The notes below the pieces were generated by a model. That model was given only the letters and a program-made list of their open reading frames with translations, did no database searches and was not told the origin of the DNA. Of a stretch of 64,000 nucleotides of DNA, positions 15,511-16,509 are shown one piece after another. The translations under genes were made by a program, and so were the position numbers. The stretch covers positions 6,121 through 70,120 of the forward strand of contig CAZIZI010000005.1 in NCBI GenBank assembly GCA_964543765.1. Direction: 5' to 3'. The stretch comes from an uncultured Thermodesulfobacteriota bacterium (lineage in GTDB: Bacteria > Desulfobacterota > B13-G15). Numbering within the stretch: the first letter of the stretch is position 1; every line of letters begins with the position of its first letter.

Positions 15511-16008
15511 ATGGAAGTTTTAAGTGTTTTAAAGAAAAGGGTGAAGGCGAAAAAGGGTTTCACGCTGATTGAGTTGATGATCGTTGTTGCCATTTTGGGC
15601 ATTTTGGCCGCCATAGCTATTCCCACCTATATGGATTATACGAAAAGGGCGAAGGTAAGTGAGGCAATAAGCTTGCTTTCGGGAATGGCGAATGCCATAG
15701 CGGAGTATCATACTTCATATGGAAGTATGCCAACTAGCATAGACGATATTGGAGGAGGAAAAACAAGTAGATATGTGACCAGTATGACGTGGGGAGGAAG
15801 AGAGACATACGGCAACAACACTTATTGTTCCATAAATGCAACCCTTGGCAACATTGGAACAGGAGTTGATAGTAAGACGCTTACCCTTTATGTGATTTAT
15901 AGGGCAAATAATGAGACTTATGATAAATGTTGGGAATGGAGCATTGAGGATAAATACGTTCCTACAAGCGTTCGAGAAAAGAGATTTAATACTCCTAACT
16001 GTCCATGA
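15511..16008 (+). CDS. type IV pilin (prepilin with class III signal)
   Basis: KKG|[22 protein letters not shown] has Gly-1, Phe+1 and Glu+5. Three N-x-S/T sequons lie in the C-terminal globular part. Confidence 0.85.
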
Positions 16009-16036
16009 TCTTAAAACTTCTTTCTTAAAATAACCC

Positions 16037-16070
16037 AAGGCCTGGGGCCTTTTGGTTCCAGGCCTTTTAA
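16037..16070 (+). terminator. intrinsic terminator-like hairpin between the two pilin genes
   Basis: AAGGCCTGG (16037-45) pairs with CCAGGCCTT (16058-66). TTTTAAAA follows and abuts ATG 16072. Confidence 0.45.
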
Positions 16071-16071
16071 A

Positions 16072-16509
16072 ATGAAGATGAAGAAGGGTTTGACTTTACT
16101 TGAAGTGATGATTGTGGTTGCCATAATTGGGATTTTGGCAGCGATTGCCATTCCTTCCTATACTAAGTATGTGAAAAGGGCAAAAAGAGCTGAAGCTTTT
16201 AATGCCTTAATGACCATTCATGCGGCTCAAGAGATGTATAAGGCAGAACATGGAGTTTATACCGATAATTGGTCAAAACTTCCTGGGTGTTCCCCGAATA
16301 TGGCCAAGGAGTATACGATTTACCTTAATTTTAGTGATGGCAATTACACCGCCACTGCGGTTCCCTATGGAAGACAAGCAGGGGACTACTGTTTTAGGAT
16401 TTCTTATAACGGAAGTAAGGAGTGTGCCGTTCATTTTCCCACGGGAAACTGTACAGGTGTTCAATGTTGCCAATCTTTCCAAGAGTGTTCCTGGGAAACC
16501 CTTCGTTAA
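16072..16509 (+). CDS. type IV pilin-like protein, Cys-rich, with 4 N-glycosylation sequons
   Basis: MKMKKG|[22 protein letters not shown] (Leu+1, Glu+5). Sequons are NFS, DGNYT, NGS and NCT; 9 Cys in the C-terminal 80 aa. No SD sequence is evident. Confidence 0.75.
   Translation: MKMKKGLTLLEVMIVVAIIGILAAIAIPSYTKYVKRAKRAEAFNALMTIHAAQEMYKAEHGVYTDNWSKLPGCSPNMAKEYTIYLNFSDGNYTATAVPYGRQAGDYCFRISYNGSKECAVHFPTGNCTGVQCCQSFQECSWETLR

Follow-up and report, generated by a model that had tools for sequence, protein, structure and literature searches.

Does a bacterium from a hot environment attach glycans to the asparagines of its type IV pili? The question is raised by a 64,000-nucleotide stretch of contig CAZIZI010000005.1 (assembly GCA_964543765.1) from an uncultured Thermodesulfobacteriota bacterium, called the window below, which encodes two tandem pilins, pilin 1 and pilin 2, and an oligosaccharyltransferase (OST) of the STT3/PglB superfamily. 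An earlier note on this DNA had described the pilins and their N-glycosylation sequons and had overlooked the OST gene, which lies two genes upstream of pilin 1. Judging by what the genes encode, the catalytic motifs in the OST, the conserved adjacency of the genes and the enrichment of sequons, we consider a pilin-linked N-glycosylation module in this uncultured Thermodesulfobacteriota lineage rather likely, and the organism probably N-glycosylates its type IV pili. Three genes carry the argument:

12806..14827, + strand: OST, STT3/PglB superfamily, 673 aa
15511..16008, + strand: pilin 1, type IVa major-pilin-like (PilE/PilA-like) prepilin, 165 aa, predicted cleavage between G16 and F17
16072..16509, + strand: pilin 2, PilE/ComP_DUS-family minor-type prepilin, 145 aa, predicted cleavage between G6 and L7

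The OST consists of a hydrophobic region with multiple transmembrane segments, up to residue 403, followed by a soluble domain that holds WWDYGY (433-438) and D528-x-x-K531. It exceeds the Pfam cut-offs for STT3 (39 bits, cut-off 24.5) and STT3-PglB_core (37 bits, cut-off 23). Its best solved relative is Campylobacter lari PglB (3rce), matched by phmmer at 1e-12 and, with a profile of ten OST family members, at E = 2.4e-46 over nearly the full length. The alignment pairs the catalytic-type residues of the OST, D48, D169-T-E171, E292 (in SVSE) and R348, with their PglB counterparts: D48 with D56, D169/E171 with D154/D156 (D154-T-D156 in PglB), E292 with E319, R348 with R375, and W433-D435 with WWD. 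Across the ten family members D48, D169/T170, E292, R348, W434/D435/G437 and D451/G452 are invariant, and position 171 alternates between E and D. Roles have been defined for D56, DXD/E, WWD and DK/MXXI, the last of which contacts the Ser/Thr at +2 (PMC7226087). In the OST, D528-I-S-K531 aligns column-for-column with M-L-R-I of PglB, so that DxxK occupies the place of MxxI and the motif is of the DK type; it is found in nine of the ten family members and is missing in the most distant, P0009. The DK motif is a feature of archaeal and eukaryotic OSTs. The two enzymes differ in further respects: Arg331 of PglB, the residue that recognises Asp/Glu at -2 in the extended sequon of bacteria (D/E-X-N-X-S/T), aligns to Met304 of the OST with no gap after E292, albeit in the variable EL5 loop, and the OST has SVSE where PglB has TIxE. 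With 74.3 bits against a cut-off of 1300 for the NCBIfam PglB equivalog NF050801, the OST is not PglB sensu stricto.

The tandem type IV pilins of the earlier note stood up to a profile search, in which both proteins exceed the cut-off of TIGR02532 (prepilin N-methylation). Pilin 1, with the cleavage motif KKG-FTLIELM, also exceeds the Pfam cut-offs for Pilin and N_methyl (38 bits for the latter, cut-off 21.2), and its closest solved structures by sequence in a PDB search are Neisseria PilE major pilins (N. meningitidis PilE, E = 1e-18). Its AlphaFold2 (AF2) model (pLDDT 86.4) comprises a helix at 19-70 (alpha-1) and four strands, for which Foldseek returned gonococcal PilE at the top (TM-score 0.63) and P. 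aeruginosa PilA next, with PAK also matched. Pilin 2, with the motif KKG-LTLLEVM and an alternative start at 16078 that gives MKKG..., the start annotated in relatives, matches ComP_DUS (PF16732; 8e-17, 62.3 bits, cut-off 27.3) and N_methyl (32 bits, cut-off 21.2). PF16732 is present in all 120 listed relatives of pilin 2, many of them named PilE by JGI, and the family takes in ordinary PilE minor pilins too. The AF2 model of pilin 2 (pLDDT 83.9; helix 9-60 and four strands) is a small pilin fold that resembles gonococcal pilin, PilX, ComP and PilV about equally (TM-score about 0.5). Family, model and structure matches therefore identify both open reading frames as real type IVa pilins, one major-type and one PilE-like minor.

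The two pilins also diverge to very different extents among relatives. The globular domain of pilin 1 is hypervariable, with alleles diverging to 64-75% identity in near-identical backgrounds, and in the metagenomic contig L013 the identity to the window is 98-100% over the OST, the nuclease gene that follows it, and the promoter and N-terminus of pilin 1, and falls abruptly to 57-78% from about 15650 on, within the globular domain (about 15650-16008). This break looks like an allelic cassette exchanged by recombination in a near-clonal background. Pilin 2 alleles are 88-99% identical, even beside a 64%-identical pilin 1 allele; the adjacency in that case is probable, P0130 and P0026 both listing a 55,727-bp JGI contig as their longest. 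At the sequence level, a hypervariable pilin 1 next to a conserved pilin 2 is the classic pattern of a major and a minor pilin. The Leu at +1 of pilin 2, set apart from the usual Phe in the earlier note, is real and kept in all pilin 2 orthologues; it does not distinguish the protein, since residue +1 among the 120 listed family members is F in 52, I in 34, L in 17, V in 12 and M in one, with four unassigned. Cysteines lie at 106, 140 and 164 of pilin 1 and at 73, 107, 118, 127, 132, 133 and 139 of pilin 2, seven in all and not nine as had been counted, five of them in the C-terminal 28 residues. A Cys-rich tail (6-7 Cys) is found only in the closest clade, the 53%-identity clade having 3-4.

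Pilin 1 carries the three sequons listed in the earlier note, at N102 (NNT, in the b1-b2 turn), N109 (NAT, in b2) and N134 (NET, in the b3-b4 turn). Pilin 2 carries five, at N66, N86, N91, N113 and N126; the earlier list of NFS, DGNYT, NGS and NCT was right as far as it went and lacked NWS at N66. In sequons per 100 aa, pilin 2 (3.45) and pilin 1 (1.82) take the first two places among 60 non-overlapping window genes, against 0.29 for the genes as a set. Expected numbers were obtained by shuffling each protein's own globular residues. By this measure pilin 2 has five sequons where 0.97 are expected (p = 5e-4), and the pilin 1 of the window, taken alone, is not enriched (3 vs 1.9, p = 0.29). The 22 pilin-1 orthologues together hold 79 sequons vs 36.6 expected (2.16x; mean 3.6, each at least one), a pooled count over related, hence not independent, proteins, and the pilin-2 orthologues hold 23 vs 5.6. 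The control set, 98 other pilins from the same search, mostly gammaproteobacterial and not thermophilic, shows 123 vs 121.9 (1.01x; mean 1.26 each). In the pilin-1 orthologues the +2 residue of the sequon is Thr in 65 cases and Ser in 14 (82% Thr), vs 266:253 in composition and 73:49 in the control pilins; a preference for N-X-T is a known property of OSTs.

The sequons fall in 24 different alignment columns of the pilin-1 orthologues, which points to repeated gain and loss, and one site is largely fixed: N134, in the context NET-YDKC in the b3-b4 turn ahead of the D-region Cys, is kept in 18 of the 22 aligned orthologues. The pilin-2 orthologue P0131 has lost Cys127 and kept the sequon (NCT to NFT). 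In the AF2 models N102 and N134 of pilin 1 and N113 of pilin 2 lie in beta-turns, N91 at a turn edge, N66 in the alpha-beta loop and N126 in the C-terminal tail; turns, loops and tails are positions that post-translocational bacterial OSTs can reach. The reading of DGNYT as a PglB-type extended sequon did not survive: an acidic -2 residue (D/E) occurs in 4% of the pilin-1 orthologue sequons, so the match is best seen as coincidental, in line with the missing Arg331 (Met304 in the OST) and with DxxK in place of MxxI. As judged from these counts and alignments, the pilins show marks of selection for sequons, whichever other OST substrates exist. The earlier proposal of pilin N-glycosylation is thus plausible, given the adjacent conserved OST, the sequon excess, the Thr bias and the conserved site. 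Beyond the orthologues, many of the pilin 2 relatives P0137-P0151 (45-55% identity), which come from other contigs, share a (G/S/N/D)-N-Y-T motif after the PGCS Cys, and the wider PilE-like family of pilin 2 has a mild sequon excess driven by this NYT motif (146 vs 97.5 expected, 1.5x). Other lineages may also N-glycosylate a minor pilin, or the motif may be structural.

We then asked how tightly the OST is tied to pilins among its relatives. A word-indexed search of 5.8 billion proteins returned nine OST matches at any level (E <= 1e-5). A single other 50%-cluster representative among 1.84 billion is more than 35% identical to the OST, whose clade is therefore tiny. Around it lies a wider OST-like family of about 144 cluster representatives, 25-35% identical (E <= 1e-30) and in many cases of marine metagenomic origin. 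Pilin genes follow the OST in every relative of at least 45% identity with enough flanking sequence (the window, L001, L002, L003, L005, L007, L010-12 and L013-L017; OST identity 45-100%). The pilins stay attached while the context upstream of the OST takes three forms, namely RsmF, an inserted FAD-oxidase gene and hisH/hisF. In L007, whose OST is 45% identical, the pilin is of a different type and not orthologous to pilin 1; it follows after a 257-nt gap (L007 2507-2953, 148 aa, 6 Cys) and carries the sequons DYNGT and TQNCT. Some 18 loci encode OSTs of 22-31% identity and offer 700 bp or more of flank on one side; a pilin-like open reading frame occurs in none of them. P0008 (26% identity), the only distant member of the wider family that was aligned, also has DxxK, and no distant locus sampled is pilin-linked.

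The signals around the module suggest that its two pilins would be made in unequal amounts. The relevant elements are:

12771..12799, + strand: sigma-70-like promoter match just upstream of the OST, TTGACA-17-TAGAGT; consensus scan 10/12, pattern match only
15398..15426, + strand: probable sigma-70-type promoter of pilin 1, TTGACA at 15398-15403, 17-nt spacer, TTAAAT at 15421-15426; read by eye
15500..15504, + strand: Shine-Dalgarno sequence of pilin 1, AAAGGAGG, strong/consensus, 6 nt before the start, kept in orthologues
16037..16068, + strand: terminator-like hairpin, 13-bp G+C-rich stem (16037-16049 / 16054-16066), then a short U run

The block TGGCATTAAAT, the -10 region of the predicted pilin 1 promoter, is kept in all five orthologous loci whose upstream regions were compared; this promoter is missing from the automatic scan, which applies a rule to position 2 of the -10 hexamer that excludes it. 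A sigma-54 promoter was also considered for pilin 1 and set aside: a conserved TGGCAT lies upstream, but at -12 the GC is lacking or varies (TG/TA), and TTGACA-17-TTAAAT fits better. Pilin 2 has no Shine-Dalgarno sequence, as the earlier note had observed, vs AAAGGAGG before pilin 1, and a leaderless or internal promoter for it was likewise rejected, the sole -10-like hexamer abutting the ATG. The 81-nt stretch 16005-16085 that holds the hairpin folds to -29.6 kcal/mol (z = -4.4, none of 200 shuffles as good), and after the hairpin (16037-16066) come UUAAA and the pilin 2 AUG (16072), with 5 nt between the hairpin end and the start codon. Its outer stem (AAGGCCTGG/CCAGGCCTT) is invariant in the close clade and its inner stem shows compensatory changes; the stem is kept in L014, L010, L016 and L003, weak in L005 and absent in L002/L017, where the gap between the pilin genes is 17 nt. 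No Rfam family matches the hairpin, and the whole window holds no tRNA. A terminator after pilin 2 was not found either: 16500-16580 folds about as well as its shuffles do (z = -0.34), and pilin 2 may therefore share a transcript with the AAA gene that follows.

Partial termination combined with an occluded start that lacks a Shine-Dalgarno sequence is a reasonable way in which pilin 2 might be kept scarce. The earlier suggestion of a low-expressed minor pilin is plausible in view of the family, the 88-99% conservation, the conserved hairpin and the absent Shine-Dalgarno sequence. Other features speak against attenuation as a fixed property of the module. The hairpin of the earlier note is real, but its U-tract shrinks to four U, two of them paired in the stem, followed by A; a consensus terminator scan did not call it on the + strand, despite the strong conserved stem and with a U run of only 4; and since the hairpin is absent from the 53% clade, attenuation is not universal to the module.

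Between the OST and pilin 1 lies one further gene:

14824..15396, + strand: secreted staphylococcal-type nuclease; Pfam SNase 4.9e-27, NCBIfam EcnA/NucI-like, below cut-off

The nuclease has an N-terminal signal peptide, an unusual C-terminal hydrophobic anchor with a poly-basic tail (LLVLLLLVLFLSLSWRRKGRRRKN) and no sequons. A 4-nt overlap between the OST stop and the nuclease start suggests that the two are translationally coupled. The nuclease is accessory, being present in L001, L003 and L010-12 (OSTs at least 82% identical) and absent from L002/L005/L017 (the 53% clade). Downstream of the pilins, 16573-20177 (+) encodes an AAA_5/MoxR-like ATPase (444 aa), a GXGXG-motif protein (234 aa) that resembles formylmethanofuran dehydrogenase subunit C, and a VWA-domain protein (518 aa), a conserved trio that comes directly after the pilins in all long related loci. 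Farther on, 25737-28570 (+) encodes a radical-SAM/SPASM protein (475 aa) and a B12-binding radical-SAM protein (477 aa), adjoined by an IclR regulator on the opposite strand; this pair may serve peptide or cofactor maturation. Upstream of RsmF, 7716-11334 (+) encodes a DUF763 protein (358 aa), an MgsA/WRNIP-type AAA+ ATPase (430 aa) and a TIGR00375/MJ0043_C-family protein (430 aa), and this order is repeated in L003.

In its most specific form, the module would be a bacterial STT3-family OST dedicated to type IVa pilins, combining a PglB-like sequence with two traits typical of archaeal and eukaryotic enzymes, a DK motif and a minimal N-X-S/T acceptor. It would cover both the hypervariable major pilin and the minor pilin with Asn-linked glycans and would represent the first N-glycosylated bacterial type IV pilus, convergent with the pilin-specific O-oligosaccharyltransferase TfpO; we hold this version tentatively, with confidence a little short of even. 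Several observations weigh against an N-glycosylation module built around the pilins. The score of the OST, far below the PglB equivalog cut-off, leaves both its activity and its acceptor putative. The 64-kb window contains no genes for assembly of the lipid-linked glycan, no flippase and no pilus-assembly genes, with neither a prepilin peptidase (PilD) nor an assembly ATPase or platform protein encoded; nor is there a pgl-type glycan-assembly cluster, no glycosyltransferase lying within 10 kb of the OST, where the neighbours are RsmF, SNase, the pilins and AAA/VWA genes. The lack of enrichment in the window's own pilin 1, the relatedness of the pooled orthologues and the make-up of the control set, given above, count on the same side. 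So does the conservation, together with the pilins, of the downstream AAA-GXGXG-VWA-Lon block in loci that all form one clade: with this block also conserved, in one narrow lineage, the adjacency of OST and pilins could partly reflect general synteny. Such synteny is the core of the strongest rival explanation, in which the OST N-glycosylates periplasmic proteins in general, the pilins are at most two of many substrates or not among them, and adjacency is inherited and not functional. All pilin-linked OSTs do fall in one clade sharing an AAA-GXGXG-VWA-Lon-ArsA block, the OST and pilin 1 each have a promoter-like site of their own, and the known N-OSTs, PglB and AglB, are general enzymes. We nonetheless judge it unlikely, as the upstream context changed three times while the OST-pilin link was kept, a 45%-identical OST precedes a non-orthologous pilin, and the sequon excess, Thr bias and conserved site mark the pilins as selected for sequons regardless of other substrates.

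The sequons might also be unused, a by-product of N/S/T-rich composition and of turn motifs in hypervariable loops, with the OST acting elsewhere or inactive. Pilins are generally N/S/T-rich, even the 98 controls averaging 1.26 sequons each, the window's pilin 1 fits such an account (3 vs 1.9, p = 0.29), and the 1.5x excess of the wider PilE-like family comes from a conserved NYT motif. This explanation is distinctly improbable to us, because observed/expected is 1.01 in the controls vs 2.16 in the pilin-1 orthologues, pilin 2 reaches 5 vs 0.97 (p = 5e-4), Thr:Ser is 65:14 vs about 1:1 in composition, and every OST catalytic motif is intact and invariant. Very improbable, finally, is a DNA-uptake (competence) pilus module in which pilin 2 is a ComP-like receptor, the anchored nuclease processes incoming DNA and glycosylation is incidental. 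The ComP_DUS match (8e-17, above cut-off), the secreted SNase immediately upstream and the ComP structures among the Foldseek matches would suit it, but ComP_DUS is a broad family whose members JGI names PilE, the structures of PilE, PilX and PilV match equally (TM-score about 0.5), mature pilin 2 is not strongly basic (isoelectric point 7.7), and the 53% clade retains both pilins without having the nuclease. Within the 64-kb window, moreover, no 10-12-mer that could serve as a DNA uptake sequence is over-represented (at most 9 copies for 10-mers and 4 for 12-mers).

Under the pilin-linked module, the OST would be a single-subunit STT3-superfamily enzyme of the inner membrane, in which the N-terminal helix would anchor both prepilins and leave their globular domains exposed to the periplasm. 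It would move a pre-assembled lipid-linked glycan, made by genes outside the window, to the Asn of a plain N-X-S/T, needing no -2 acid, its target sequons being found chiefly in beta-turns and loops; the prepilin peptidase would then cleave the subunits, which would assemble into a type IVa pilus. Pilin 1, with its strong promoter-like site and strong Shine-Dalgarno sequence, would be the abundant hypervariable major subunit. The hairpin would end most transcripts after pilin 1 and bury the pilin 2 start, which lacks a Shine-Dalgarno sequence, making pilin 2 a low-level minor pilin. The glycan coat would probably mask an exposed pilus surface that is under diversifying selection, or stabilise it, as a defence against phages, predators and/or heat.

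If this proposal is true, N-glycosylation of pilins, hitherto regarded as an archaeal trait, would extend to bacteria. It would also give glyco-engineering, where the D/E-X-N-X-S/T requirement of PglB is a limitation, an attractive small enzyme-substrate pair from nature that accepts plain N-X-S/T and is probably thermostable. The locus would further provide a natural system in which to follow sequon gain and loss against pilin hypervariability, with phage shielding and high-temperature stabilisation as possible forces. We found no report in the full-text literature of N-glycosylated bacterial type IV pilins, nor of OSTs in Thermodesulfobacteria.

The closest enzyme with a solved structure, Campylobacter PglB (3RCE/5OGL/6GXC), shares the architecture of a multi-transmembrane N-terminal region and a periplasmic domain, and its D56, DxD/E, EL5 Glu, R375, WWDYG and DGG equivalents are kept in the OST. 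The OST departs from it in DxxK, SVSE and Met304 and in its score (74 vs 1300 bits), the pilin sequons here lack the -2 acid, and the gene adjoins pilins and lies outside any pgl cluster; to our knowledge, Campylobacter has no type IV pili. Desulfovibrio-type PglB homologues, from the same broad phylum-level group, are bacterial N-OSTs for which the -2 acid is reportedly not needed, and we know of no pilin linkage reported for them. Archaeal AglB, with its N-glycosylated pilins and archaellins, offers the combination that is proposed here, a DK-type OST motif with Asn-linked glycans at plain N-X-S/T in pilin-like subunits. Unlike that system, the host here is bacterial, its pilins are classical type IVa (GFTLIELM, PilE-like fold), and the sequence similarity of the OST to archaeal AglB structures is weak (E = 1e-5 to 1e-6). 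Several sequons per archaeal pilin subunit, as in the pilins here, are listed in Table 1 of a review that describes pilin N-glycosylation as one that 'appears to be limited to the archaea' and bacterial type IV pilins as O-glycosylated (PMC4371748). Neisseria ComP and Pseudomonas PilE (PF16732) resemble pilin 2, which scores above the family cut-off and has a small type IVa minor-pilin fold; there is no sign of a DNA-uptake sequence in the window or of a basic DNA-binding surface on pilin 2, and the 6-7-Cys tail is peculiar to its closest clade.

The nearest parallel in gene arrangement is TfpO (PilO) of P. aeruginosa, an oligosaccharyltransferase whose gene adjoins that of the major pilin. 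TfpO and the Neisseria enzymes PglL/PglO transfer a lipid-linked glycan, made elsewhere in the genome, en bloc onto a periplasm-exposed hypervariable pilin; they belong to the O-antigen-ligase (Wzy_C) family and modify Ser/Thr. The locus described here shares the OST-pilin gene arrangement of TfpO and the hypervariable pilin, and differs in that its OST is of the STT3 family with WWDYG and the conserved feature of its pilins is Asn-X-Ser/Thr.

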